This document shows, one piece after another, positions 3,051-17,855 of a stretch of 64,000 nt of DNA; the stretch's first letter is position 1, and each line of letters opens with the position of its first letter. The position numbers and the translations under genes were made by a program. The notes under the pieces were generated by a model that was given only the letters and a program-made list of their open reading frames with translations, searched no databases and was not told the DNA's origin. Source of the stretch: an uncultured Alphaproteobacteria bacterium (GTDB taxonomy: Bacteria > Pseudomonadota > Alphaproteobacteria > Rhizobiales > Beijerinckiaceae); NCBI GenBank assembly GCA_963808645.1, contig CAWEGU010000005.1, positions 93,442-157,441 on the forward strand, written 5' to 3'.

Positions 3051-4268
3051 TCACAGGCCGGCCAATTTGTTAAGGACCCTTTGGACCAGCTCCGCAATGG
3101 GATACTTGAACAGAAATAGCGGCAACATCGGCAGCAGCGCAGCGATCACGACAGCTATCAACAGCCGCGTGCTTACCGGGACCCAGCGCATATTGCGCAC
3201 GATTCCGACGCTGCTGGACAAATCAGCCAGAGACTGCAAATCGGCTGTGCCCAACAAAGGATCCGCCGGGATAGTGGACGCGTTCAGCCATTTGTTCTCG
3301 AAGTCGTTCACGTAACGCGTCGCGAACACCATGTAGTCGCTCAATCCTTTCTCCTGGCAGGCCCTGAGCTTGAATGCGAAGACGCACGGGGGGAGAAATA
3401 TCAGCGCCAGTTCCACGATAAGAGTGAGCGCAAACGCGGGGTAAATCACCTCGAAGACCGTCTTGCCTGAAGAAATTTCCTCGGCGAACGATGCGGACAC
3501 AACGATCGAGATCGCCAGCACCAAGGCGGTGAAATGGGTCTGCACAACTTCCAGATATCCGAGCCCCGCGGCGCCATCGGGATGAACCGGCACGAGGTGG
3601 AGATCCAGTTTCGCCAAGCGCCAGAGGAAGCGACACCAGAGGGCGATTCGCCAAATCCAGCGAAACATCAGGAAGCGAAAGAGCGGCAGGCAAACGATCC
3701 AATACCACAGACCGGCTAAGGGAACATCGCTTAGGGATCGGGTCGGGTCGAGCGCCGCCGTTTTTCCCGACAAGTGTAGCTCCGCCGCAAACAACGATAA
3801 CAGTGCAGCAGCCAACAGGCACATTGCTTCCGGCAGCCACGCGTCTTTCCATCGGACTATGCGTGCGATTTCGGATTCCAGGGTCGGCAGCGCGTTGCTG
3901 GGCACGACCCCGGAACGCACGATCGTGCTGACAAAGTCCCTCAATCGAGGGTCCAACGACGATTCGCACAAGAAGAACAGCGGAATGACCACCAGCAAGC
4001 GAACATTCGCGGCGATCGCCGAAAGCGAAAACAACTTGTCACTGACACCCCCGATGGACGCTAACGCAAGCAAAATTGACCATGAGAGCAAACCCAGAGC
4101 TAGCCCCAACGCGACCGTGTTCGTTTCCCCGCGGACGAGGCCCAGGCGCCGCCCAAGCCGGTGAAGCGGGCCGCCGAGCAGTGAAAAATTCTCAAGTCTT
4201 CCGCGTTCTTCCATACTTCGTGACTCGATTGCCAACGAACTCATGTTTTGCCGTGGCGCAGCGCTCAA
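3051..4268 (-). CDS. Hypothetical integral membrane protein
   Basis: 405-aa intact ORF with many TM segments. Confidence 0.7.
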   Translation of the reverse strand: MSAAPRQNMSSLAIESRSMEERGRLENFSLLGGPLHRLGRRLGLVRGETNTVALGLALGLLSWSILLALASIGGVSDKLFSLSAIAANVRLLVVIPLFFLCESSLDPRLRDFVSTIVRSGVVPSNALPTLESEIARIVRWKDAWLPEAMCLLAAALLSLFAAELHLSGKTAALDPTRSLSDVPLAGLWYWIVCLPLFRFLMFRWIWRIALWCRFLWRLAKLDLHLVPVHPDGAAGLGYLEVVQTHFTALVLAISIVVSASFAEEISSGKTVFEVIYPAFALTLIVELALIFLPPCVFAFKLRACQEKGLSDYMVFATRYVNDFENKWLNASTIPADPLLGTADLQSLADLSSSVGIVRNMRWVPVSTRLLIAVVIAALLPMLPLFLFKYPIAELVQRVLNKLAGL

Positions 4269-4364
4269 AATTCGCTCCCGTCATATGAACGATTTCCCGC
4301 CAGTGATAAAGGATATCCTGCCGGAGGCGTTTCCACACTGCTCCTCAAACGCGACGAGTGCGCC

Positions 4365-4496
4365 GACGCTGGACCATTGTCGGCAAAGCTGCTGCAGAAC
4401 GGGACGCTGAAGACCTACAAGGGCTTCCCGCACGGCATGCCGACCACGCAGGCAGACACGATCAATGCCGACCTGCTAGCGTTCCTCAAAGCCTGA
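4365..4496 (+). pseudogene. C-terminal remnant of a non-heme chloroperoxidase-like alpha/beta hydrolase
   Basis: DAGPLSAKLLQNGTLKTYKGFPHGMPTTQADTINADLLAFLKA carries the catalytic-His PHG motif; the rest of the gene is absent. Confidence 0.75.
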
Positions 4497-5050
4497 CGCT
4501 GAGGTGATGGCACTGGCGACAAAGCAATCTCTGTCCTAGGGACTAAAAAAGGCATCGTTATTTGATGACGTCACGTCTGCTTGTGGCGCAACTCGGACTC
4601 AACCTGACGTCCGGCTCGGGTCCCCAAAGCGCCGCAAAGCGGACATCGGTCAGGCCGCCCTAAGCTCTATTTATGAGTTCACGCTGTAGTACAATTTTAG
4701 CCTGCACTAAATTTCCACTTATATATACTTACAATTGGGAAAATTTAGCAAAATTCTATGCGCGATGATTGAGCGCGCCGCCCGTATGATCCTCGAATCC
4801 CCCTGGCCTTTGTCTGGGACTAAAAGAATTACTAAGACCATCCACGCCGATGGCCAGCCAATCAAACAGTCGCGAGACGACGGCGATCGGCTATGCAGAT
4901 TAAGCGCGGTGCTGCAAGCACTCGGAAGATGACACGCCGACTGCACGAGCGCAGCGTCGGAAAACCCCGCCGTTGCTTCCCATGTGCTTCCCAATCGAGG
5001 TTTCTGGGAAGCAGCGCATCGCACTTAACGAGCTAACTAGGTGATTTCAT

Positions 5051-5097
5051 TGGTGAGCGCGATGGGATTCGAACCCATGACCTCCTGATTAAAAGTC
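5051..5097 (-). other. 3' half of tRNA-Lys(UUU) = putative att site (not a full tRNA)
   Basis: Reverse complement GACTTTTAATCAGGAGGTCATGGGTTCGAATCCCATCGCGCTCACCA: anticodon loop TTT, T-arm GGTTCGAATCC, CCA end. No D-arm or 5' acceptor strand upstream; integrase starts 170 bp away. Confidence 0.85.
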
Positions 5098-5108
5098 CCG
5101 CCGCGCCT

Positions 5109-5248
5109 CATATCGCTGGTTAACACTGAGAGGCATTCTAACAAAAATAAGGCCACGTAATCAGACTAGTGAAGGATAATCCTATAGCATCGCATATCAC
5201 GGGCTAACACCAGTTGACAGGCCGCGATGTTTGCCCTATCGTTGCCCT
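5109..5248. repeat. Candidate integrase arm-type sites
   Basis: CATATCGCTGGTTAACAC (5109-5126) vs CATATCACGGGCTAACAC (5193-5210), 15/18 identical; TTGCCCT twice, 11 bp apart (5231 and 5242). Confidence 0.45.
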
Positions 5249-5268
5249 TAATCGCCATCTGATTTTCG

Positions 5269-6531
5269 GTGCAACCTGTGACTCAACTATTGACAGACCG
5301 AACCTTGCGGGGACTGAAACCGGCGCCGCTGGGCAAGCGGACCGTCCTTTGGGACAGCGCGGTTCCGAGCCTTTGTGTCCGCGTGACCGATAAGGGCGCA
5401 GCGTCCTTTAATGTCATGCGGCGCCTTCATGGACGCGTCATTCGCCGGATGATCGGCGTGGCGTGGCACCTGCCGCTCTCGGCCGGTCAACCGCTCCCTT
5501 ATTCGCTTGCCAATGCGCGAGACGATGCGCGGGCCGCGATCCTCGATATTTCCCGTGGCATCGATCCAAAGGCGAAACGGGAAGCGGCGCGGCATGCTAA
5601 GGCACAAACCGCGCGCGAGACGTTTGCCGCCGTGGCGAAAGAATTCTTGGCCGATCATGTCTCCGGCCTTCGATCGGCCCGCGAGGTTGAAGCGGCCTTC
5701 AATAACGAGCTTTCCCCAGTTTTTGGCAAGAAGCCGATCGCGGACATTTCCGACGCGGACATTGCGCGCCTGCTCAAGAGCATTGCAAAAAGCCGCCCGT
5801 ACATGGCCCGGCATATTTTTGCCTATCTCTCGAAATTCTTCCGTTGGGCAATCGCGCAGCGCTGTTACGGCGCTGCCGTCTCGCCTTGCGCCGGGTTGTC
5901 GGCAAAGGATCTGCTCGGCAAGCCGAACCCCCGAACACGCGTCCTAAATGATAGCGAGCTGGCGGCCGTGTGGCGGGCCACGGCTGGACTTACCTATCCG
6001 GCCGGCCCGTTCGTACGGTTGTCGCTTTTGACCGGCCAGCGGTTGCGGGAAGTGGCGGAAATGGCATGGGATGAGGTCGATCTCGAAAAACGGCTTTGGA
6101 TTATTCCGCCAGGAAGGATGAAAGCCGACGCGGCGCATATCGTCACGCTGGCGCCGGAAGCCGTCGCGATCCTTGAAGACTTGCCCCGATGGGCCGGCCC
6201 GTTCGTCTTTTCGACAACTAGCGGCCGGCGGCCTATCGCAAATTTTTCCGGCATTAAGGAAAAACTCGATGCGCTTATGCCTAGCGTCGAGCCGTGGCGG
6301 TTCCATGATTTGCGGAGGTCGATGCGAACCGGACTATCGGCCTTGCGTGTCCCCGACACGGTTTCGGAGCTCTGCATCGCGCACACGCAAAAAGGGCTAC
6401 ATAAGATTTATGACCAGCACGCCTATTTTGACGAAAAGCGGTCCGCCTTCGATGCTTGGGCACACCACTTGTTCGCCATTTGCGAGCCGGACACGCCGGC
6501 CAATATCATTTCATTCGCGGCGCGAGGATAA
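5269..6531 (+). CDS. int: Tyrosine recombinase/integrase (P4-like, arm-binding N-domain)
   Basis: LTDRTLRGLKP N-terminus; catalytic residues LLTGQRLREV (R), FHDLRR (H-x-x-R), HTQ...IYD (H, Y). Confidence 0.92.
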   Translation: MQPVTQLLTDRTLRGLKPAPLGKRTVLWDSAVPSLCVRVTDKGAASFNVMRRLHGRVIRRMIGVAWHLPLSAGQPLPYSLANARDDARAAILDISRGIDPKAKREAARHAKAQTARETFAAVAKEFLADHVSGLRSAREVEAAFNNELSPVFGKKPIADISDADIARLLKSIAKSRPYMARHIFAYLSKFFRWAIAQRCYGAAVSPCAGLSAKDLLGKPNPRTRVLNDSELAAVWRATAGLTYPAGPFVRLSLLTGQRLREVAEMAWDEVDLEKRLWIIPPGRMKADAAHIVTLAPEAVAILEDLPRWAGPFVFSTTSGRRPIANFSGIKEKLDALMPSVEPWRFHDLRRSMRTGLSALRVPDTVSELCIAHTQKGLHKIYDQHAYFDEKRSAFDAWAHHLFAICEPDTPANIISFAARG

Positions 6532-6612
6532 GGGCCGCTAACGAAAACACGCGGATAGCCCGACGGGGCGACAAGTCGAGAGTGCATCGCTCGATTTCCG
6601 CGTGTCCTTACG

Positions 6613-7125
6613 ATGCGCAGATGCACGCAAATGGAAGACGAAAGACAACTTGTCAGGGATCTCGCCAAACGGCCCTACAGCAAACAAGCTCTTCACGACG
6701 TTCTCGATGCTTTTAATGACCTGTCCGGCAGGGACAAGCGCGCCCTCGTGGCCGAGGCCATGTCCAATCTAAACATCACGTCAGAAGACTTGGCGAAAGC
6801 CGGCTACGCCTTTGCGAGGCTAGGCGCCGGACTTGAGCGTCTTGCGAGGACTCTTGCGAGGATTGATCTAGAGCAGGTGATATACCACTATGCTCTACGG
6901 CTCGCGCCTTTGCTGGCGCGCGAGAGAAAGGCCGCGATCTTTGACGCCGCGGTGATCGATGAAGCGAAGAAGCTCAACATAACGCCAGCGATCAGCTCAA
7001 AATTCGCCGAGACCGTAGGTCCCGGACTCGAAAAGCAAGGGTTTAAAGCTGGTCGCGTAAAAATCCTAAATTCAGTACGCAGATCAAAATCGATGCGCAA
7101 TCGCCGCAATAGTACCGGTTCTTAA
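6613..7125 (+). CDS. Hypothetical protein
   Basis: 170-aa ORF between int and alpA, same strand. Confidence 0.5.
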   Translation: MRRCTQMEDERQLVRDLAKRPYSKQALHDVLDAFNDLSGRDKRALVAEAMSNLNITSEDLAKAGYAFARLGAGLERLARTLARIDLEQVIYHYALRLAPLLARERKAAIFDAAVIDEAKKLNITPAISSKFAETVGPGLEKQGFKAGRVKILNSVRRSKSMRNRRNSTGS

Positions 7126-7161
7126 GTACCCGCATTCATGTAGTACATGTTCTTAAGAACC
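7110..7161. promoter_or_regulatory. Direct-repeat operator upstream of alpA
   Basis: TAGTACCGGTTCTTAAGTACC (7110-7130) and TAGTACATGTTCTTAAGAACC (7141-7161), 18/21 identical, 31 bp apart; the second contains the palindrome GTTCTTAAGAAC. Confidence 0.5.
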
Positions 7162-7214
7162 GATATTTCAGCCTCGCTCAACGTCGCTTATCTCATTGCA
7201 GAAACTAACTTACG

Positions 7215-7466
7215 ATGGGAAGATCGCGCATGACATTAGTTCGTTTCCGCTATCTACAAGAGCAGGGAATTTTCAACGACCGGGTCGCGCTGTCCCGGGC
7301 AATCGATCATTACGATTTCCCGAAACCAATTGCGCTAGGTAACAACACGCTCGCCTGGGATCTTGAGAAAGAGGTCGAGCCCTGGCTAAAGTCGCGACCA
7401 CGGAGGACGCCAAAATGCTCATCTTCAAAATCAAAGCGACTTCCCGCTATCGTGGATGCCGGTTGA
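7215..7466 (+). CDS. AlpA-like regulator/excisionase
   Basis: FPKPIALGNNTLAW...EVEPWL resembles the AlpA consensus FPxPxxLG...W; size and position fit. Confidence 0.75.
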   Translation: MGRSRMTLVRFRYLQEQGIFNDRVALSRAIDHYDFPKPIALGNNTLAWDLEKEVEPWLKSRPRRTPKCSSSKSKRLPAIVDAG

Positions 7467-7469
7467 AGC

Positions 7470-7928
7470 ATGGGCTTTCAGAATGCTGGGAGGGCCGCCC
7501 TTGATTCACCAAGGAACGGCCCTCTTGATGCACACAGCTTGGCGGCTTGTTGTTGCAACCTTCCTAATAGCGCCTCCGGCCCAGCGGAGCAAGGCAAAAA
7601 GCGCGGTGGCCGCGCGTCGCGCCAAAAAGGCAACCGTCTTGAACGCGCGATCGTGCGCCTGTTTCAAGATCACGGCGTTGGCGCCGTACGCGTCCCGCTT
7701 TCCGGATCTGCGGGCGGTTCCTATTCAGGCGATTTAACCGTCCCGATCCTCGGCCGCAACCTTGTCGTCGAAGCCAAGGCCCGCGCCAATGGATTCGCGC
7801 AGTTCTATTCGTGGCTCGAAGGCCGCGACGCTCTCATTATCAAAGCTGATCGGCGCAACTCGCTTGTCGTGCTGCCTTTGCGCGTGGCTGTTGGAATTGC
7901 GATTGCGGCGAAAACGCGGAAACCATGA
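7470..7928 (+). CDS. Holliday-junction-resolvase-like (Hjc, PD-(D/E)XK) nuclease; true start probably later
   Basis: SRQKGNRLERAIV...RVPLSG...GDL...VEAK pattern. Confidence 0.65.
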   Translation: MGFQNAGRAALDSPRNGPLDAHSLAACCCNLPNSASGPAEQGKKRGGRASRQKGNRLERAIVRLFQDHGVGAVRVPLSGSAGGSYSGDLTVPILGRNLVVEAKARANGFAQFYSWLEGRDALIIKADRRNSLVVLPLRVAVGIAIAAKTRKP

Positions 7929-8347
7929 GCTGCGCCTTTCCGCCTATCCTTGCGCGGTTGATCCCGAGACTTGGTTCAACATTCGATGGCGAGGTCGTAG
8001 CGACCGCGCGAGCGATCGAGCGTGTCTTAAAATCCGAAAGACGCGATTGGCACGACCTCGCCCGAGCGCTTCCTGCGCTCGCTCCGCCCCCGCGAGCCAC
8101 GCGCGAAGCTGCGGACGAAGGCGCGCCACTGTGGGGCAATCTCGATAGCGAGGAGCGCCTTCAGTGGCTTGCTGCACTCGCCTCGGAGCCGGGGCTCAAC
8201 AACTGGTCGAGATCATTTGTCGACTCCATAGCGGCACAAATTAGATCAGGGTGCCGGCTTAGCCCGAAACAACTTGGGTGCATCGACAAAATTTTAGCCG
8301 CGGCCTGGCGACGAGGCTTCCGCCATGATGCAAGGCGGCGCGCATGA
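7925..8347 (+). CDS. Hypothetical phage-type protein
   Basis: ATGA overlaps at both ends couple it to its neighbours. Confidence 0.6.
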   Translation: MSCAFPPILARLIPRLGSTFDGEVVATARAIERVLKSERRDWHDLARALPALAPPPRATREAADEGAPLWGNLDSEERLQWLAALASEPGLNNWSRSFVDSIAAQIRSGCRLSPKQLGCIDKILAAAWRRGFRHDARRRA

Positions 8348-9150
8348 TCGCTCCTCATTTTGCCACCTGCGCGATGTGGTGGGCGCGGCGAGGCTTTGCG
8401 GTTTTCCCCGTTGTGCCGCGGGGCAAGCGCCCGCTCGGCAAGCTCGTCCCGCACGGTGTCAAAGATTCCTGTCGCGAGCAGGAGACGATAGCGGAATGGT
8501 GGCGCCGTGCACCAAAGGCGAACATTGGGCTCGCGGTCCCAAATGGCGTTTTAGTCGTCGATTTAGATGGCGACCAGGCCTGTCGGAATTGGGTTAATTT
8601 ATGTGGCAGGAACGGTGAGCCGGACCAAACGCTTTCCGTCACAACCGGGCGCGGGCGGCATGTTTATTTCAAAACGTCCGTCCAAATCGGCAATTCGACT
8701 GGCCGGATAGGCCCCAGCATCGATACTCGCGGCCCTGGAGGATATACTATTGCACCACCGTCAATACATCCTGGAGGCGCAATTTATTCTTTAGATGGAC
8801 ACTGTATCGAGATTTCCGAGGCCCCGCGCTGGTTAACCGATTTGGCGCTTGCGGGCATCAAGCCCGGCGAGATGGAAATTCCGCCCGCTCCCCCATTACG
8901 TGCGACGCATGGCTTCGGAACCTTGCATGCCGTTGAGGGCATTGTCCGCGCCGTCGCGGGCGCCAAGCCCGGGGAGCGAAATTCCCTGACCTATTGGGGG
9001 GCATGCCGAATGCGGGAGAAAATTGCGGAGGGAGCAATCTCCTGCGTGCTCGGACAGGCTCTGCTTTTCGAAGCCGCGCGGCGGACGGGACTTCCAAAAA
9101 TTGAGGCGCACAAGACGATTGCCAGCGGGATTTGGGGCGCACATGGATGA
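8344..9150 (+). CDS. Bifunctional DNA primase/polymerase (Prim-Pol) domain protein
   Basis: GFAVFPV, PKANIGL, VVDLD, TTGRGRHVYF, IDTRGPGGYTIAPPSIHPGG motifs. Confidence 0.88.
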   Translation: MIAPHFATCAMWWARRGFAVFPVVPRGKRPLGKLVPHGVKDSCREQETIAEWWRRAPKANIGLAVPNGVLVVDLDGDQACRNWVNLCGRNGEPDQTLSVTTGRGRHVYFKTSVQIGNSTGRIGPSIDTRGPGGYTIAPPSIHPGGAIYSLDGHCIEISEAPRWLTDLALAGIKPGEMEIPPAPPLRATHGFGTLHAVEGIVRAVAGAKPGERNSLTYWGACRMREKIAEGAISCVLGQALLFEAARRTGLPKIEAHKTIASGIWGAHG

Positions 9151-10507
9151 CACCCCAGCCAATGTGGCCGATTTTGTCGAAGCGTGCACGAAGCGAGGGG
9201 CGCGGGAAGGAGTTTCCCTCGATGACTTCCACGCGTACATGCCGCTACACTCCTACATCTTCACGCCGTCCCGCGAAATGTGGCCGTCAACAAGCGTCAA
9301 TGGACGAATTCCGCCGGTTCCTCTTTTGGATAAAACAGGGAACCCAAGGCTCGACAATGCTGGTAATCAAAAAACAATGCCGGCCGCTGCTTGGCTCGAT
9401 AAGAATAGGCCAGTGGAACAAATGACCTGGGCGCCGGGCGAGCCCATGCTGATTTCGAATCGCCTCATTTCGGACGGCGGATGGATCGAGCGAGCGGGCG
9501 TTACCTGCTTCAATCTCTATCGGCCGCCGACAATCAAGCTGGGCAACGCGACCGAAGTCGGGCCGTGGCTCTCACATGCCGAAAGCGTTTTTCCAGACCA
9601 TGCGAGCCACATCATCAAATGGCTTGCCCACCGGGTGCAATGCCCACAAGAGAAAATCAATCACGCGCTCGTTTTGGGCGGCAATCAAGGCATCGGCAAA
9701 GACACATTGTTAGAGCCGGTAAAACGGGCGATCGGTCCGTGGAATTTCGCCGAGGTTTCCCCAACGCAGATAATGGGTCGCTTCAATGGTTTTCTGAAAT
9801 CCGTCATCCTGCGCGTGAGCGAAGCGCGCGACCTTGGCGACGTCGACCGCTTTCAATTCTATGATCACATGAAGGCTTACACGGCCGCGCCGCCGGACGT
9901 GCTGCGTGTCGATGAAAAACATTTACGCGAGCATTCCATGTTCAATTGCTGTGGCGTCATCATCACATCAAACCACAAGACCGACGGCATTTATCTGCCG
10001 GACGACGACCGCCGCCATTTCGTGGCCTGGTCCGATCTCGCAAAGGAAGAATTCGCGCCGGCGTATTGGAACGGGTTGTGGGAATGGTACGCGCGCGGCG
10101 GCTATGGCCACGTCGCGGCCTATCTCGCCAAGCTCGATCTATCGGCGTTTGACCCGAAAGCGCCCCCGCCGAAGACCCCTGCTTTCTGGGATATCGTGGA
10201 CGCCAACCGCGCACCCGAGGACGCGGAACTAGCGGACGTGCTCGACAGCATGGGAAACCCAAACGCCACAACCCTGAGCCGGATTACCGCCGCGGCAACC
10301 GGCGACATCATGGCGTGGCTCAGCGACCGCAAAAACCGACGCGCTATACCGCACCGCCTCGAAAAATGCGGCTATGTCCCGGTCCGCAATGGCGACGCCA
10401 AAGATGCATTTTGGAAAATCCGGGGCGCGCGACAAGTCGTTTACGGCAAGAGCGCCATCTCAATCAGCGACCGCTTCCGCGCCGCACGCAAGCTCACAGA
10501 AGGATAG
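9143..10507 (+). CDS. Primase-associated SF3/D5-like helicase (DUF5906-type NTPase)
   Basis: Walker A GNQGIGKDT; IITSNH...DDRR motif; ATG at 9143 overlaps the Prim-Pol stop. Confidence 0.8.
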   Translation: MDDTPANVADFVEACTKRGAREGVSLDDFHAYMPLHSYIFTPSREMWPSTSVNGRIPPVPLLDKTGNPRLDNAGNQKTMPAAAWLDKNRPVEQMTWAPGEPMLISNRLISDGGWIERAGVTCFNLYRPPTIKLGNATEVGPWLSHAESVFPDHASHIIKWLAHRVQCPQEKINHALVLGGNQGIGKDTLLEPVKRAIGPWNFAEVSPTQIMGRFNGFLKSVILRVSEARDLGDVDRFQFYDHMKAYTAAPPDVLRVDEKHLREHSMFNCCGVIITSNHKTDGIYLPDDDRRHFVAWSDLAKEEFAPAYWNGLWEWYARGGYGHVAAYLAKLDLSAFDPKAPPPKTPAFWDIVDANRAPEDAELADVLDSMGNPNATTLSRITAAATGDIMAWLSDRKNRRAIPHRLEKCGYVPVRNGDAKDAFWKIRGARQVVYGKSAISISDRFRAARKLTEG

Positions 10508-10589
10508 GTGAAATCACTGTAGTCACTGAAAAACCTATTATCATTCTATACCGTATCCATAACTGTTTAGCTTTAGTCTGTATAATCGC

Positions 10590-10764
10590 AAAGCGTCACG
10601 CGCGCGTAGTGCGCGCGTAGTGATAAAGCGTCACGCGCGCGTAGTGCGCGCGTAGTGATAAAGCGTCACGCGCGCGTAGTGCGCGCGTAGTGATAAAGCG
10701 TCACGCGCGCGTAGTGCGCGCGTAGTGATAAAGCGTCACGCGCGCGTAGTGCGCGCGTAGTGAT
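10590..10764. repeat. Perfect 5 x 35-bp tandem repeat (putative replication origin)
   Basis: Unit AAAGCGTCACGCGCGCGTAGTGCGCGCGTAGTGAT at 10590, 10625, 10660, 10695 and 10730, with no spacers. Confidence 0.95.
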
Positions 10765-10885
10765 AGTGAGAATTTCAGTGACTTCACTGATTTCACTGCC
10801 CGGAAACTCCAGCCAAGAAAATTGAAAATGAACTGCTAAGCTTACCACACATTTTTTCGTGCGCCAGCACTGCCGCTAAAACAGT

Positions 10886-10945
10886 CATGCCATAGGTTCC
10901 TATGGCATGTTTAGCTTAAGGTTACACGTGATCTTCAATCACGTG
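10886..10945. repeat. Two inverted repeats before the terS-like gene
   Basis: CATGCCATAGG-TT-CCTATGGCATG (10886-10909) and CACGTGAT-CTTCA-ATCACGTG (10925-10945). Confidence 0.8.
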
Positions 10946-11036
10946 CTCTAAAATAATAAACCAATGTTAATCAGTGTTATGTGCGTTACTTGCCGCGCCC
11001 CTTGACATTCAGGGCAACGTTAGGGCTACTTTGAGT

Positions 11037-11438
11037 ATGGAAACAGCCGCAGAAACTATCGCGCCGGTCGCTTCGCGATCGTCAAGGCTTCGAAGCAGGT
11101 TGAGCAACGGAAGCAAGCTACTCCCGATGACTGACGGCCGTTCGGCCACGGCTCGCCGGTTCAAGGATCTTGTCGAGGATATCGCCATGGACCTCGGCGG
11201 CCGGGACCGCCTGTCGGAAGGGCAGCGCCAGCTTATCCGCAGGGCCGCCATGCTGTCCGCTGAATGCGAGCGCCTAGAGGCCATGTCCGCCAGGGGCGAA
11301 GCCGGGTTCGATATCGAACTTTACGGCCAAATTTGCGACCGGCTCGGCAGGCTGTTCGGACGGCTCGGCCTTGAGCGCAAGTCCCGCGACGTGACACCGT
11401 CGTTGCAGAGCTACCTACAGGCAAAGGCGGCGCCATGA
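11037..11438 (+). CDS. Small helical protein, putative terminase small subunit
   Basis: 133-aa ORF just upstream of terL. The TerS role is inferred from position and size only. Confidence 0.45.
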   Translation: METAAETIAPVASRSSRLRSRLSNGSKLLPMTDGRSATARRFKDLVEDIAMDLGGRDRLSEGQRQLIRRAAMLSAECERLEAMSARGEAGFDIELYGQICDRLGRLFGRLGLERKSRDVTPSLQSYLQAKAAP

Positions 11439-11653
11439 CACGAGGAATCCCCAAGAAACGCGCCAATACCGAGCAGCTACGCAAGAAGTGCCTCCGGGCT
11501 TCGGGGGTATGGCTAACGGCGGATAAGGCGCCGGCGCTCTCGGCCGTCTGTGGGCCGCGCTGAGCCTTTGCCGCCAGCCCACTATCCGGCAAAGCGTGTC
11601 CAGCTTGGCAAGCGTCAGGCTCCAAGGGGCGCTGGCGGCGAGGGCGCTGGCGC

Positions 11654-13117
11654 ATGAACATTCTCGCCGCGCTCGACGATCGCAACTTGCTTGGCGCCTC
11701 GATCCGCGACGCGGAGTCCTGGAAGCCTTGGCGGGCGTTGCTGGCGGCTGCTTTCGGCCTGGAGCTATCTGCGGACGAATTAGCGCTTTATCGCCAGTGT
11801 ACGGGCCGCGCTGTGGCGCCTAGCGCGCCTGCCGCATATTTGTGGCTTGTGATCGGGCGCCGCGGTGGCAAATCGTTTGCTATGGCATTGATCACCGTGT
11901 TTCTCGCGGTGTTCCGGGACTGGCGCCCAAAGCTATCGCCGGGCGAACGAGCGATTGTGTTGTTGGTGGCGGCCGATCGCGAACAGGCGAAGATATTGCA
12001 TCGGTACTGCCAAGGAATTCTCAGTCCGTCGATTTTGCAAAGCCTAGTTTTGAACATCACGGCAAGTGAGATCGAGTTAAAGGGCGGCGTAACGATTGAA
12101 GTTGTGACGCGCTCCTATCGCACAGTTCGCGGGCGTTCGGTTTGCGTTGCGGTTTTGGACGAGCTTGCTTTCTGGCGTGATGATGACAGCGCGAATCCCG
12201 ATAGCGAAGTTTTGAATGCCGTGCGCGCCAGCATGGCGACGTTCGGTTCCGATGCGATGGTGATTGCGGGCAGCTCGCCCTACGCGCGCCGCGGCGTGTT
12301 GTGGGATGCATTTAGGCGCTGGTTTGGCAAGGACGGCTCGCGGAATCTTGTTTGGCGGGCGCCGACGCGGGTTATGAACCCGACGATATCGCAAGACTTC
12401 ATCGATGCTGAATTTGAGCGCGATCCGGCATCGGCCAATGCCGAGTATGGTGCCGAGTTTCGTTCCGACGTTCAGGAATTTGTCAGCATGGACGTGCTTG
12501 AGGCATGCACCGCCGATGGCGTGTTTGAGCTGCCCCCAATATCCGGCGCGAGTTATGTCGCTTTCGTCGATCCGAGCGGCGGCAGTTCCGACAGCATGAC
12601 GCTTGCGATTGCGCATCGGGACAAGTTTGGGTATGGAATATTAGACGCTATTCGCGAATGCAGGCCGCCATTTTCGCCTGAAAATGTGGTTGAAGAATTT
12701 TGCAACACGCTAAAGCAATATCACATTACCAAGGTTACGGGCGATCGCTATGCGGGCGAGTGGGCGCGTGAGCCATTCAGAAAGCGCAATGTCACATACG
12801 AGCTAAGCGAGAAGCCGAAAAGCGACATATATCGCGATATATTGCCGCTATTGAATTCCCGAAAGGTTCAACTTCTCGACGATCGCCGGTTGATATCGCA
12901 ATTGCATGGCCTTGAGCGCCGGACGGCTCGCGGTGGCAAGGATTCGATTGATCACTGTCCGGGGGCGCATGACGATGTTGCGAATGCGGTTGCCGGAGCG
13001 CTTGTGCTAGCGTCTGGCCGGGTGCCTCTCGTCATAACCGATAGCGTGCTTGCCTGGTCGCGCAGTTCGACGCCGGCAATGCAACGCACATTTCATAGCT
13101 TTGAGGGGGGATATTGA
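11654..13117 (+). CDS. terL: Terminase large subunit-like protein
   Basis: Walker A GRRGGKS, Walker B VAVLDELAFW, coupling motif GSSP, RNase-H-like VDPSGGSSD and HDDVANA. Confidence 0.85.
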   Translation: MNILAALDDRNLLGASIRDAESWKPWRALLAAAFGLELSADELALYRQCTGRAVAPSAPAAYLWLVIGRRGGKSFAMALITVFLAVFRDWRPKLSPGERAIVLLVAADREQAKILHRYCQGILSPSILQSLVLNITASEIELKGGVTIEVVTRSYRTVRGRSVCVAVLDELAFWRDDDSANPDSEVLNAVRASMATFGSDAMVIAGSSPYARRGVLWDAFRRWFGKDGSRNLVWRAPTRVMNPTISQDFIDAEFERDPASANAEYGAEFRSDVQEFVSMDVLEACTADGVFELPPISGASYVAFVDPSGGSSDSMTLAIAHRDKFGYGILDAIRECRPPFSPENVVEEFCNTLKQYHITKVTGDRYAGEWAREPFRKRNVTYELSEKPKSDIYRDILPLLNSRKVQLLDDRRLISQLHGLERRTARGGKDSIDHCPGAHDDVANAVAGALVLASGRVPLVITDSVLAWSRSSTPAMQRTFHSFEGGY

Positions 13118-13330
13118 TGAGCAGACAACCCCCGTACCTTGCGATGGATGGCGTTTTAATTGACCGGCCGCAGCCGGGGTGCGTCGTCGGCAAATTCCGA
13201 GACAACATTAGCAACACAACCAAAAATGGAACATCGAAAATGAAAACAATGTCAAATTCTGACGCTGCCACTTATGGGAGCATGTTCGTCAAAAACCGCG
13301 CTGCTGCAAATCGGTTTTTGGGCTAAGTGC

Positions 13331-13678
13331 ATGGGGCAGGATGCTGCGATGGATGATGAAACCACCGCGCGAATCAAGGAATTTTTGAGCGACAAGTTAA
13401 GCGACAAAGACCACACGAAACTCTGCTCCATGCTCGCGGGCGATGTCGAGGCGCAAGATACCGAACCGCCGCCGGGTGGGGCAGAGCCGCCAGCGAAATT
13501 TAGGGGCGCGGCTGAAGACTCGATGGCTGATTTCCTTCGGCGATTTCCCGCCGCCGCGAGAATAAGGATTGATAATTCTGGAATCCAGCCCCCCGCGCGC
13601 GCCGCAAGTTATTCGGCGAATCCTGCCAGCGTTGCTGTGCGCTCGCGATCATCTGCAGATCGCTTGTCGCCGAACTGA
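13331..13678 (+). CDS. Hypothetical protein, 3' end replaced at the trbJ junction
   Basis: ORF after terL runs into antisense trbJ sequence near 13620. Confidence 0.35.
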   Translation: MGQDAAMDDETTARIKEFLSDKLSDKDHTKLCSMLAGDVEAQDTEPPPGGAEPPAKFRGAAEDSMADFLRRFPAAARIRIDNSGIQPPARAASYSANPASVAVRSRSSADRLSPN

Positions 13679-14039
13679 TCGCGACAGGGTAGCGTTGCGA
13701 GTACGCCTGATTCATGGACTGCACATTGTAAGTGATACCATTGGCTTGTTTCAGCAGGTTCTGGATCTGCGAATAGTCCCGCTCGACGTCTTTCAGTACC
13801 GTCGTCGGCAGCTGTTCGAGCTGTTTCGCTTGATTGATCAGCATCTGCGCCTGGTTCTGCAGGCTTGTGATCTGATTCTGGATCTGCTGCAGGGAGCGAG
13901 CGGCGGTCAGCAAATTCTGACTGTAGTTCGAAGGGTCAAAGACAAGCATTTGGGCACGCACGGGCTCGACGACAGCCATCGCGAGGATCATCGCAAGGAG
14001 TGGGGCGACCACGGCGACATGAGTTTTGTGGGACATCAC
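13620..14039 (-). pseudogene. trbJ: Conjugal transfer protein TrbJ, 3'-truncated
   Basis: Signal peptide, VFDPSNYSQNLLTAARSLQQIQNQITSLQNQAQML; similarity ends after QQRWQD. Confidence 0.85.
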
Positions 14040-16249
14040 AATACCTCTGGAGTCATGCTGGGGAGAAGATCGGCGGCCCAGGCAACACCCTTGGCAGCCA
14101 GCCAGGCGGACGCGAAGTTCTCACGGCCGGCGGTGGCGAGAGCGACGGCAATGGCGGCCTGGTCAGATTTTGAGGATGCGGCGGTCAAAGCGAGCGCAAC
14201 CTCGCCCAGTCCGAGTTCGAATAGACGGTTACCGCGCCGGGACTGGCAGTAGTAATCGCGCTTGGGGGTGGCGCGGCTGATGATCTCGATCTGCCCGTCG
14301 TTCAATCCGAACCGCCGATAGATGGCGGTGATCTGCGGCTCGATCGCCCGCTCATTGGGGAGAATATTCGAGTCGGGCAGCTTTCGATGAGGGCGGGTGC
14401 GATCGCGCTCGTCTCGATATCGGCGAGCGATTGCGTGGCGAAGATGACCGACGCATTCTTTTTGCGCAGTGTCTTCAGCCACTCCCGAAGTTGTTGTGCG
14501 AAACCCGTGTCGTCGAGCGCGAGCCAGCCTTCATCGATGATAAGAAGCGTCGGCCGTCCGTCGAGCCGGACTTCGATCCGATGAAAGAGATAGGCGAGAA
14601 CAGCCGGCGCCGCGCCCCTGCCGATGAGGCCTTCCGTCTCGAATACCTGAATGTCGGCCGCACCAAGCCGCTCGGCTTCGGCGTCAAGCAGCCTGCCAAA
14701 GGGGCCGCCGAGACAATAGGGTTGAAGCGCCTGTTTCAGGGCGTTGGATTGCAACAGTACCGACAGGCCGGTGAGCGTGCGCTCCGAGGCCGGAGCCGAA
14801 GCCAAAGAGGTAACGGGGGACCAGATGTGCTCCTTGGCGTCCGGGGTAATTGTAATGCCTTCCCGGGCAAGGAGGGCTTCGACCCATTCAGCGGCCCAGG
14901 CCTCTTCGACATAATTCGTCGATCCGTGCGAGCGGCTGCAGAGCCACGGGTTCTTGCGCATCCTCCGAAAGTGCGCCGCCCAGATCATGCCAGTCGCCGC
15001 CCATGGCGAGCGCCGCTGCCCGGATAGAGCAGCCGAAATCGAAGGCAAAAATCTGCGCGCCAACATAGCGGCGAAACTGCAGGGCGGTCAGCGCCAACAG
15101 CACGCTTTTTCCCGCGCCGGTCGGCCCGACGATCAAGCAAGGAGCCGAGCCACGCCTCGATCGCATTCACCGTCTCATGGATGCAGGTGAAATCGCGGCC
15201 CTCTAAGACCTTCTCGACAAGCCGGAGCTTTTCGTTGGTCGTGCCGGCATCTTCATCCCAGACGGTCACCGTGGCGGTGACATAGGCCTGACCGATCTCG
15301 TCCGATCCCAACTCCTGCAAGGCCAAATCCGCGTCGGCAGCCTTGTTGGCGGCGTCCGTGTCGAGCAGCGTCGAGGCCTCGTTGGTCATCACCTCCTTCA
15401 GGATCGCGGCGATCGATTTGCGCTTGGCGAACCATTGCCGGCGGATTTTTGTGAGCAGCCTTGTCGCATCGGTCTTGTCGAGCATGATCGCCCGGGTCGA
15501 CCAGCGATAGGGAAAAGCCAGGCGATTGAGTTCCCGGGAAAGGTCGTGGTCGGGAACCCAATGATGGTCAGGGTTCGCAGATAATGCGCGCCAAGCCTCG
15601 GCTCGAGCCCGCCGGTTAGCGGCTGATCCGCCAGAAGCGCGTCGAGATAGATGGGCGTCTCGGGCAGGCGCACGCGATGGCGCTTTGTCGAGACGCAGGC
15701 ATGGAGATAAGTGAGCGTCTCCTCGTCATCGAGCCAGATGGCTTCGGGGACAAAGCCTTCGATGAGCTGCAGGATTCGCTCGGCGCGATCGGCAAAGCTC
15801 TTGAGAAGCTCTTTGCCGTCGACGCCTTCGCGCGATTTTCCCTCGTAGAGCCAGCCCTCCGCACGGGAAGAATCCTCGGCCGGTGGCATCCAGACGAAAG
15901 TCAAATAATAGAAGTTCTCGAAATGCGCACCCTCTTCCTCGAATTGTTGGCGGCGCTCATAGTCAACGAGCGCGGAGACGGGTTCCGGAAATTGGCTTCG
16001 TGGATAGTTTTGGGCCGGAACCCGGCTCGCTTCGACGAAAATCGCCCAGCCGCTCCCCAACCGGCGCAAGGCGTTGTTCAGCCGCGCCGTGGTGCCGACG
16101 AGTTCGGCCGGCGTGGCACCGCGAAACCGCGCCGTCTGCTGAAACGAGCCATCCTTGTTGAGCACGATCCCCGGCGCGATCAGAGCGACCCAGGGCAGAA
16201 AATCGGCGAGGCGTTGCGGCTTCTTGCGATATTCGGCGAGATTCAGCAT
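14036..16249 (-). pseudogene. trbE: TrbE/VirB4 ATPase, frameshifted with an internal deletion
   Basis: Pieces in several frames: MLNLAEYRK, RRQWFAKRKS, IEAWLGSL joined directly to LIVGPTGAGKSVLL, LIIDEGW, WLKTLRKKNASVIFATQSLAD. Confidence 0.9.
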
Positions 16250-16532
16250 CGGTTCCCGCCCCGAAATGCGATGGGTAGCGCAGATGGCGGCGCACCACGT
16301 CGACGAATTGCGCATCGCGTTTCGCGGCCCAGACGGCCGCCGCATGGCCGATCGCCCAGATGAAAAGGCCAGGAATCCAAAGCCGCAGGCCTAGGCCGAC
16401 CGCGGCTGCCAGCGTGCCATTGGCGATCGCGACCGCGCGCGGCGCGCCGCCGAGCAGGATCGGCTCGGTCAACGCCCTGTGGACGGGCGCGTCGAAACCA
16501 GCCAGGGGTTCATAGGACAAGATTCCGCCCAT
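16250..16532 (-). CDS. trbD: TrbD/VirB3 (stop codon apparently lost)
   Basis: FDAPVHRALTEPILLGGAPRAVAIANGTLAAAVGLGLRLW. Confidence 0.8.
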
Positions 16533-16873
16533 CAGATGAGCGCCCCGCCGCCGAATGAAAAGAACGTCAGGAAAAAGCTCGACGCGGCGAAAGCGATCGA
16601 CAGGCCGAAGATGATCTGGATGAGCCGGCGGAAACCGCCCGACGTGTCGCCGAAGGCGAGCGTCAGGCCGGTCGTGATGATAATGATCACCGCGACGATT
16701 TTCGCGACCGGCCCTGCGACCGATTGCAGCACCTGCTGCAGCGGCTGCTCCCAGGGCATATTCGAACCAGCGGCATGCGCCGAACTCGTCGCCAGCAAAG
16801 GCATCGAGACAGACAGCAGCGTGGTGAAAACGATTTGGGTACAGTCGCAATGCGAGAGGAAAGGCTTGTTCAT
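16532..16873 (-). CDS. trbC: TrbC/VirB2 pilin
   Basis: AHAAGSNMPWEQPLQQVLQSVAGPVAK...LAFGDTSGGFRRLIQIIFGLSIAF. Confidence 0.9.
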   Translation of the reverse strand: MNKPFLSHCDCTQIVFTTLLSVSMPLLATSSAHAAGSNMPWEQPLQQVLQSVAGPVAKIVAVIIIITTGLTLAFGDTSGGFRRLIQIIFGLSIAFAASSFFLTFFSFGGGALI

Positions 16874-17855
16874 ACGGGATCTCCAAGGGAAGCGAGCTTG
16901 GTTATTGTGACGAGGCGATAGTCACCACGCTTATCGAGGCCTTCAACAGTGGCGAGCGCGATGAGGCGGCGTTGGCCGCCACGTCCGGCCAGGACCGCAA
17001 TGACATTGATCGTCTCAGCGATCAGCGCGCGGGGAACGGTTACCACGGCTTCCTGGATGAGCTGTTCGAGACGCCGGAGCGCGCCGAGCGCGGACCCCGC
17101 ATGGATCGTCCCGATCCCGCCGGGATGTCCGGTGCCCCAGGCTTTGAGAAGATCGAGTGCTTCGGCTCCCCGCACTTCGCCGATCGGAATGCAGTCGGGA
17201 CGCAATCGCAACGAGGAGCGGACGAGATCGGAAAGCGACGTCACACCGTCCTTGGTGCGCAAAGCGACGAGATTTGGCGCCTGGCATTGAAGCTCGCGCG
17301 TATCTTCAATCAGGATCACACGGTCGGATGTCTTCGCCACCTCGGCGAGCAACGCATTGACGAGGGTCGTCTTGCCGGTCGAGGTTCCACCTGCGACAAG
17401 CACATTTCGGCGTTTCTCGACCGAGAGCCGCAAGATTGTCGCCTGTTCGGCCAGCATGATGCCGGCGGCGACGTAATCCTCCAGCGTGAAGATGGCGACC
17501 GCTGGCTTGCGGATGGCGAAGGCCGGAGCCGCGACGATCGGCGGAAGCAGGCCTTCGAACCGCTCGCCTGTTTCGGGCAGTTCAGCAGAAACGCGCGGGC
17601 TACCGGGATGGACTTCGGCGCCGACATGATGCGCGACGAGGCGAATAATTCGTTCGCCGTCGGCTGGCGCCAGGCACTCGCCCGTGTCCGCCAGACCATC
17701 CGTCAGCCGGTCGATCCAGATGCGCCATCCGGATTGAGCATGACCTCGATGACGCCAGGGTCTTCAAGCCATGTGGCGATCGCGGGTCCAAGCGCCGTGC
17801 GCAGCATGCGCGCGCCGCGCGTGAATGCTTCCGAACGAAGAGAATGTGCCCCCAT
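16870..17855 (-). pseudogene. trbB: TrbB/VirB11 ATPase, frameshifted
   Basis: MLRTALGPAIA N-terminus, GGTSTGKTT Walker A, IEDTRE, LRLRPD, TGHPGGIGTIHA; split across frames. Confidence 0.88.

Follow-up and report, generated by a model that had tools for sequence, protein, structure and literature searches.

Gene Content of the Terminase-Encoding Element

The window analyzed here is a stretch of 64,000 nucleotides of contig CAWEGU010000005.1 (positions 93,442 to 157,441) from an uncultured bacterium of the Beijerinckiaceae (assembly GCA_963808645.1). From position 5051 to approximately 13630, next to a fragment of a tRNA-Lys gene, it carries genes for a tyrosine integrase, an AlpA-like regulator, an Hjc-like endonuclease, a primase-polymerase, a helicase, a small helical protein (cluster c2) and a large terminase subunit (TerL), with a repeat array between the helicase and c2 genes (Table 1). 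Judging from gene content and order, this segment is probably the integrase-side arm of a decayed element belonging to a satellite lineage that resembles the phage-inducible chromosomal islands (PICIs) and encodes a terminase of its own.

The genes from the integrase to TerL are all open and closely packed. The tight coupling without frameshifts given in a preliminary description of this DNA therefore holds from the integrase through TerL, but not for the open reading frame (ORF) directly after it, ORF-A, which is frameshifted. The assignments of the integrase, the Hjc-like endonuclease, the Prim-Pol, the helicase and TerL made in the same description were confirmed by Pfam and PHROGs matches, as was that of AlpA, though weakly, with a PF05930 score that barely exceeds the gathering score. 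Pfam and PHROGs also bore out the lack of a portal or capsid gene in the window element, and no window protein matched a defence system in PADLOC.

The integrase is 86% identical to that of the related locus L013 across residues 4-419. The slot after the integrase is occupied in relatives by an ORF of ~185-220 aa, unrelated to the 170-aa ORF of the window. Homologs of the AlpA-like gene are present in the related loci L006, L012 and L013, and relatives have either AlpA or HTH_17 (helix-turn-helix, HTH) at the same position.

Table 1. Features of the window element and of the adjoining conjugative remnant (window coordinates).
Feature	Position	Strand	Evidence or remark
tRNA-Lys(UUU) 3' fragment, 47 nt, distal att repeat	5051..5097	-	Anticodon loop to CCA end
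Tyrosine integrase, full length	5269..6531	+	Arm-DNA-bind_3, Phage_int_M and Phage_integrase domains (Pfam, PHROGs)
170-aa ORF	6613..7125	+	No family match in Pfam, PHROGs, NCBIfam or PADLOC
AlpA-like excisionase or regulator	7215..7466	+	Weak match, PF05930 E = 2e-4; phrog_2790
PDDEXK_15/Hjc-like endonuclease	7470..7928	+	Pfam; phrog_244
140-aa ORF, conserved in L013	7925..8347	+	No Pfam or PHROGs family
Prim-Pol primase-polymerase	8344..9150	+	PF09250, 7e-37
DUF5906 (D5/P4-type superfamily 3, SF3) helicase	9140..10507	+	Pfam, PHROGs; start overlaps Prim-Pol stop
Inverted-repeat-flanked array, five perfect 35-bp units	10508..10796	.	Repeat analysis
Small helical protein, cluster c2, 133 aa	11037..11438	+	Putative TerS, from position only
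42-aa ORF between c2 and TerL, conserved in L003	11435..11563	+	
Large terminase subunit TerL, intact	11654..13117	+	phrog_2, 6e-26
ORF-A pseudogene, acidic post-TerL protein	13117..13630	+	Frameshifted, 3' end lost
TrbJ-like gene, truncated	13620..14039	-	C-terminal part lost at junction
Decayed trb/virB operon, outside the terminase element	14036..17457	-	TrbE/VirB4 pieces, TrbC pilin, TrbB/VirB11

Terminase Genes

The TerL of the window has its Walker A motif at G68-R-R-G-G-K73 and, by alignment to T4 gp17, its Walker B motif at D169-E170, and the nuclease acidic positions are D306, D364 and D440/441. Walker A, Walker B and the three nuclease positions are kept in at least 26 of 27 family members (40-100% identity), and TerL is open in nearly all loci; the enzyme is predicted from these conserved residues to be catalytically intact. 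TerL is under purifying selection, with pairwise ratios of nonsynonymous to synonymous substitution rates (dN/dS) of 0.14-0.20.

Among isolated phages, no TerL was more than 29% identical to that of the window. A profile scan of IMG/VR with an alignment as the query recovered 79 loci with TerL identities of 24-57%. In a TerL tree of 93 rows, obtained by a quick search with an arbitrary root and with support from the Shimodaira-Hasegawa-like approximate likelihood ratio test (SH-aLRT) only, the window is placed in a clade of 12 small-element rows with 100% support, and next to it stands an equally supported clade (100%) of five phage-type rows, whose members carry genes for portal, protease and capsid. 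Small-element and phage contexts interleave in this tree, with at least ten changes on well-supported branches.

The c2 gene upstream of TerL had been described as terS-like. Searches with its product in Pfam, PHROGs, NCBIfam and PADLOC gave no hit, every one of its 531 homologs is annotated as hypothetical, and a profile search against PDB sequences returned nothing. The AlphaFold2 (AF2) model, with a predicted local distance difference test (pLDDT) score of 75, has a confident helical core and a disordered N-terminus, basic and rich in arginine and serine. The fold search against the PDB gave nothing better than E ~1, with known small terminases at E = 5-6 and a template modeling (TM) score of ~0.33. 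Because neither sequence nor fold supports a TerS role, the full terminase of the preliminary description is treated here as putative. What points to TerS is the position of c2, which precedes TerL in 19 of 30 loci, and its co-conservation with TerL, given that the pair is conserved while the surrounding genes are swapped; the pairwise dN/dS of c2 is 0.2-0.45. On these grounds c2 is designated a putative TerS.

Repeat Array

The repeat array of the earlier description was found as stated, with five perfect 35-bp units (10590-10765), each with two GCGCGCGTAGT motifs, ten in all, between 36-nt inverted repeats at 10508-10543 and 10761-10796. Many relatives have short iterons with a 9-11-bp period located 200-700 bp upstream of c2, and the array of the window is an expanded version of them. 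It is probably a replication origin, which is the most likely role because the array directly follows the helicase gene, and possibly a recognition site for the terminase in packaging.

Relatives of the Element

More than 7,600 TerL homologs were found in the protein collection, dozens of them at 80-89% identity, and thousands come from soil metagenomes; the few that are named belong to Methylocella or to metagenome-assembled genomes (MAGs) of Beijerinckiaceae. In the sampled genomes of the GTDB family, TerL was found in 23 of 201 (~11%), with up to seven copies per genome, and in the rest of the class in three of 400.

The close relatives, with TerL 78-89% identical to that of the window, have a common layout of int-rep-c2-TerL-ORF-A/B. 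Three of them on long contigs encode an integrase, the ~185-220-aa ORF, AlpA/HTH, a replication module, c2 (~140 aa) and TerL, followed by two coupled ORFs of ~190 and ~225-245 aa, cargo genes and a minus-strand tRNA. The replication module varies between relatives (Toprim/D5_N/DUF5906, AAA_25 or small ORFs), and the cargo of the close relatives includes ParB-methylase, phospholipase D (PLD) nuclease and HTH genes. Across the family, the conserved core as read from these genes would consist of the integrase, the AlpA/HTH regulator, a swappable replication module with an iteron origin, the putative TerS and an intact TerL. The variable arm after it appears to hold orphan helical or acidic proteins, cargo and sometimes a portal, protease, neck, tape measure or hub.

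Element bounds were defined from gene maps of 29 loci together with a search for tRNA 3'-end repeats. Ten elements are bounded by tRNA direct repeats of 29-55 nt and have sizes of 13.1-19.0 kb, including L006 with 14.4 kb. In addition, IMG/VR contains two contigs of 9,819 and 9,398 bp that carry terminal repeats and are, to all appearance, whole circular-type genomes. The succession of integrase, replication genes, small ORF and TerL recurs in the ten bounded elements, in these two contigs and in the 16.7-kb contig of Virus Rctr16k, and a capsid gene was found in none of them. Jointly with the explanation proposed for the window, it is rather likely that the family is made up of small elements (9-19 kb) that integrate at tRNA genes and occur mainly in Beijerinckiaceae, being common in those from soil.

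In a genome of the same genus assembled as a single 5.2-Mb contig (G128), there are seven TerL matches, which include two near-identical pairs (L061/L062 and L049/L050); this points to recent activity or duplication of the elements.

Capsid and Other Virion Genes

No major capsid protein was found by Pfam or PHROGs in any small element examined. Neither portal nor capsid is present in the examined members of the 12-row TerL clade of the window, including the att-bounded L006. In the closest relatives, TerL is followed by ORF-A, as in the window, then by a 223-227-aa orphan and then by cargo. The preliminary description had suggested checking the flanks of TerL homologs for portal or capsid genes, and none were found in the untruncated close relatives. 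The largest ORF after TerL in L006, ORF-B (244 aa), was considered as a hidden capsid and rejected, because AF2 predicts an all-alpha protein of three helical modules joined by disordered linkers, for which no fold match was found.

Single virion genes occur in more distant members. A portal (phrog_145) is present in L054 and L057, and a portal stands directly after TerL in L054, L057, L093 and L098; head protease (phrog_2229) is encoded in L048 and Neck1 (phrog_222) in L055, and a lysozyme-domain tape measure and a baseplate hub (phrog_196) were each found in at least five loci. One of the two terminal-repeat contigs from IMG/VR, L088 (~9.7 kb), has only the integrase, c2, TerL, a Neck1-type protein, a tape-measure-like protein and orphans, in a scan that covered all ORFs of at least 100 aa plus one of 76 aa and left out five shorter ones (54-78 aa).

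The tape measure (often with a lysozyme domain) and the phrog_196 hub, without tail tube or sheath, recur in many small elements (L048, L053, L055, L056, L060, L061, L062, L066, L067, L085, L090, L095, L096 and L120). A satellite that supplies tail-tip parts would be unusual. A different minimal arrangement was observed in L116, a circular-type IMG/VR contig of 9,545 bp with a 123-bp terminal repeat, which has a family TerL, no integrase and a 384-aa protein with a match to a marker of major head proteins.

ORF-A contains two copies of the motif F-x-x-x-F-P-x-x-A-x-I/L (window 13117-13630; L003 11467-12036; L005 11464-12021). In L048, both the ORF-A-like protein and the head maturation protease (oriented 9937 and 10404) have an F-P-x-x-x-R-L ending. 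The motif of ORF-A and L048 looks like a shared capsid-interior targeting peptide.

Right-Hand Junction and State of This Copy

In relatives, the acidic ORF-A (~185-190 aa) follows TerL with overlapping stop and start codons. In the window it is split over two frames (13117-13335 and 13316-13630), with the frame switch at ~13316-13326, and its match to relatives ends 17-20 codons before the gene end. Both ORF-A and the minus-strand TrbJ-like gene are cut at ~13620-13630, and the junction that had been noted near 13620 is therefore real. In the trb/virB remnant that follows, TrbE/VirB4 is broken into at least four ORFs and TrbB/VirB11 is cut down to 195 aa; to the right of this remnant there are genes for acetate kinase, phosphoketolase, cytochromes and other metabolic functions.

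None of the ORF-B and right-arm genes of relatives were found in the island that contains the element, and a whole-genome search with the right-arm proteins of relatives found an ORF-B homolog only in a separate degraded copy on contig C15, so the right arm was deleted and not displaced. An insertion at 13620, instead of a deletion, was considered and rejected from the same island and whole-genome searches. The deletion fused the terminase element to a decayed remnant of a conjugative element, with the loss of the end of ORF-A, ORF-B and the cargo arm, and the window copy is a stranded remnant. It would be non-functional as a small mobile unit, with the integrase and both att repeats still intact.

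The second, differently degraded copy of the family in this genome is located beside a tRNA-Asp (C15:55050-63900; L009 10051-18937). Its integrase shows 55% identity and its TerL, which has lost the first ~70 residues, 64%. Also present are a piece resembling ORF-A, an ORF-B of 225 aa, a tape-measure fragment of 272 aa and a baseplate hub of the gp41 type. At C3:22366-23365 of the same genome, a gene for a PLD-type nuclease and a small ORF are 55-79% identical to right-arm cargo of L006, L013 and L016; the pair is possibly what is left of a third element of this kind.

Attachment Repeats and Extent of the Island

The tRNA-Lys attachment (att) site of the preliminary description is indeed a repeat derived from tRNA-Lys, but it consists of only the 47-nt 3' fragment, and ARAGORN found no tRNA in the 64-kb window. 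The intact tRNA-Lys(UUU) with the identical 47 nt lies ~62.6 kb to the right, beyond the window (C5:161081-161156, window-equivalent 67640-67715), with the partner att repeat inside it at ~67640-67686. The direct repeats thus bracket ~62.6 kb and not 8.5 kb. What had been taken for a discrete 8.5-kb element is instead a truncated remnant, fused to the remnant of an integrative and conjugative element (ICE) inside a 62.6-kb tRNA-Lys island. The polarity, with the integrase adjoining the fragment and the intact tRNA at the far end, is the same as in the att-bounded relatives.

In the whole genome there is exactly one further copy of the 47-nt fragment, that in the intact tRNA-Lys. No internal copy was found between the repeats with up to three mismatches on the 25-nt core, and a simple tandem array in which a middle att site is still intact is thereby excluded; likewise, the window contains no shorter or degenerate internal copy at up to three mismatches. 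A search for both island flanks in 57 genomes of the same genus yielded no demonstrable empty site. There is no synteny of the flanks in other genomes: in G631, the left one lies at 2.0 Mb and the right one at 3.5 Mb, with the tRNA-Lys at 0.6 Mb.

Just left of the island, the window contains an intact IS630-family transposase gene (2045-2986) and a segment (3051-4356) that is conserved in the genus, yet at unrelated genomic positions. A dispersed repeat of ~190-225 bp follows at 4361-4585. It recurs at C15:541377-541565 with 93% identity and on numerous contigs in other genomes of the genus, and is possibly a small non-autonomous mobile element.

Proposed Explanation and Alternatives

Here it is proposed, with confidence that is about evenly balanced, that these elements are a kind of satellite placed between the PICIs and the capsid-forming PICIs (cf-PICIs). 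Such a satellite would encode its own terminase (TerL and a new small helical partner) and no capsid protein, sometimes with neck or tail-tip parts. TerL would have been drawn repeatedly from a high-GC phage lineage, the 9-19-kb genomes would be loaded into the proheads of that lineage, and ORF-A would be a capsid-interior targeting or size-redirecting protein. The less specific reading of a PICI-like satellite with its own terminase is the best one for the family and somewhat more likely than not. Its most probable mechanism would be that the element excises from its tRNA site, starts replication at an origin of its own once a helper phage becomes active, and lets its own terminase cut the DNA and pump it into helper-made proheads. 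In the case of the window, a deletion joined ORF-A to the truncated trbJ, with the right arm lost and the att repeats left 62.6 kb apart around a patchwork island. The preliminary description had offered two options, and the second of them, a satellite that brings both terminase subunits, is in line with the small att-bounded or circular capsid-less elements and with a TerL under selection, its TerS part being putative.

Several observations weigh against this proposal. The TerS assignment has position as its basis, and both copies of the family in this genome are degraded. Several IMG/VR loci at 42-53% TerL identity are real phages, with the gene order TerL, portal (phrog_146), protease (phrog_2229) and major head protein (phrog_264, 283 or 10). 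The patchy virion genes in many small elements also fit prophage decay, and the search for a resident helper found no related gene for a portal, protease or tape measure in the rest of the genome. Finally, Virus Rctr16k (KX853514), a 16.7-kb member of the family that counts in favor of the proposal and was assembled at 219x depth, with identical ends, from the DNA of concentrated virus particles (Gambelli et al. 2016, PMC5099504), could stem from contaminating circular DNA and not from packaged DNA.

The main rival, which is considered unlikely, is that the family consists of decaying prophages in which TerL survives by chance or because the decay is recent. The relatives of TerL in real head modules, the scattered portal, protease, Neck1, tape measure and hub genes of the small elements, and the visible degradation of both copies in this genome would all be expected from it. 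The preliminary description had held that intact homologs in the form of ordinary prophages, with head and tail operons after terL, would speak against a satellite, and this situation was found only for the distant TerL homologs, at 42-53% identity. Decay is harder to reconcile with ten independent elements that keep both att repeats, 13-19 kb in size and with equal int-to-TerL spacing, or with circular-type contigs of 9.4-9.8 kb and a 16.7-kb member assembled from particle DNA. Nor does it agree with a TerL that is open nearly everywhere with its catalytic residues and low dN/dS, or with a c2-TerL pair conserved amid swapped surroundings.

It is less probable still that a TerL-like ATPase-nuclease was recruited for anti-phage interference, by blocking the portal of an invader or cutting its DNA, or for processing the replication products of the element. 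Interference genes are common in satellites and islands, the TerL of the window is intact although the element no longer moves as a small unit, and the best TerL of an isolated phage is only 29% identical. However, there is no PADLOC match, TerL is paired with a small upstream ORF in terminase gene order (19 of 30 loci) and nests among phage terminases that adjoin portals, and members exist as circular-type contigs and in particle DNA.

The first option of the preliminary description, a cf-PICI-like element that lost its portal and capsid to the deletion at ~13620, is very improbable, and so is a small phage with the same loss. The junction at 13620-13630 is a real truncation, and in some distant members (L054, L057, L093 and L098) the portal directly follows TerL; nevertheless, the examined members of the 12-row TerL clade have neither portal nor capsid, the att-bounded L006 included, and the nearest relatives have ORF-A after TerL, then the orphan of 223-227 aa and cargo. 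Since the relatives are without a capsid gene, head genes were not what was deleted at the window junction.

That these are autonomous miniature viruses with a capsid and portal too divergent to be recognized is hardly credible: several post-TerL proteins are orphans without sequence or fold match, but the largest of them in L006 is all-alpha with disordered linkers, and the ORFs of L088, only 9.7 kb long, are taken up by the integrase, c2, TerL, Neck1 and the tape-measure-like protein, which leaves no room for capsid, portal and tail genes.

If the proposed satellite with its own terminase is correct, the family would explain many "defective prophage" calls in the genomes of methanotrophs and methylotrophs and would be a testable gene-transfer route in uncultured soil methane oxidizers. 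The value of the window itself is lower because this copy is a truncated remnant in a composite island.

Comparison with Known Satellites and Phages

Rctr16k, one of the closest known systems, comes from a bioreactor virus-particle metagenome, and its depositors called it a virus genome and not a satellite (PMC5099504). Like the elements described here, it has an integrase, a replication protein, small ORFs, a terminase, a ~200-aa ORF, a protease and a tape-measure-like protein, and no recognized capsid or portal was found in it; its TerL is, in contrast, only 28.7% identical to that of the window. The genes expected after the terminase in a complete prophage (head, tail and lysis) are missing in the window, and the att-bounded relatives measure 13-19 kb without a capsid gene.

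With P4, the family shares integration in tRNA genes, a D5/P4-type primase-helicase and a size of about one third of a typical temperate phage genome, as well as a dependence on a helper for the capsid, which would also apply here. P4 differs in that it has no TerL, employs the helper terminase by way of a cos site common to both and carries genes for Sid, Psu and Delta. No PHROG or Pfam match to Sid, Psu or Delta was found in the window or its relatives, and their possession of a TerL speaks against a need for the terminase of a helper, as in P4-type packaging.

The PICI model of SatelliteFinder includes an integrase, a regulator, a primase-replicase, a capsid-morphogenesis gene and TerS, with no other structural genes (PMC10085698). 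The family resembles the classical Gram-negative PICIs in its site-specific integration, size of ~10-15 kb, lack of a capsid gene and variable cargo arm, and in the order of integrase, AlpA-type regulator, primase-replicase with an adjacent origin and packaging genes. In the window, the integrase is at the element end, in a copy that is itself no longer small, and a regulator of the AlpA/MerR/Stl type (AlpA, E = 2e-4) and a primase-replicase (Prim-Pol and DUF5906) are both present. PICIs have at most TerS or an Rpp-type redirector and use the TerL of the helper, whereas an intact TerL is encoded in the window and across the family. Furthermore, the putative small subunit of the family matches no known TerS family, and genes for a portal, protease, neck, tape measure or hub are present in some members. 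Marine virion-encapsidated elements also carry TerS, with TerL assumed to be derived from the helper (PMC9618062).

The cf-PICIs add TerL plus a capsid protein and head-tail connectors to this set (PMC10085698), and their TerL appears to have been captured from phages on more than one occasion (de Sousa et al. 2023, PMC10085698). The likeness is in the satellite backbone with its own TerL, which was apparently acquired from phages repeatedly in the family as well. Unlike the cf-PICIs, which have a major capsid protein, portal, protease, head-tail adaptor and connector, the small elements of the family are without a detected major capsid protein and only a few have a portal. The window has its own TerL and no major capsid protein; portal, protease and adaptor are absent from it and from its TerL clade, with single genes of this kind in distant members.

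No description of a satellite with TerL and without a capsid (motor-only) was found in the literature searched, including a 2024 review (PMC11389934). The current classes of satellites either borrow the motor of the helper (PICI, P4, PICI-like elements (PLE) and phage-inducible chromosomal minimalist islands (PICMI)) or have a motor with a full head (cf-PICI). A motor-only family, if confirmed, would show that the compatibility between TerL and portal is in itself exploitable.

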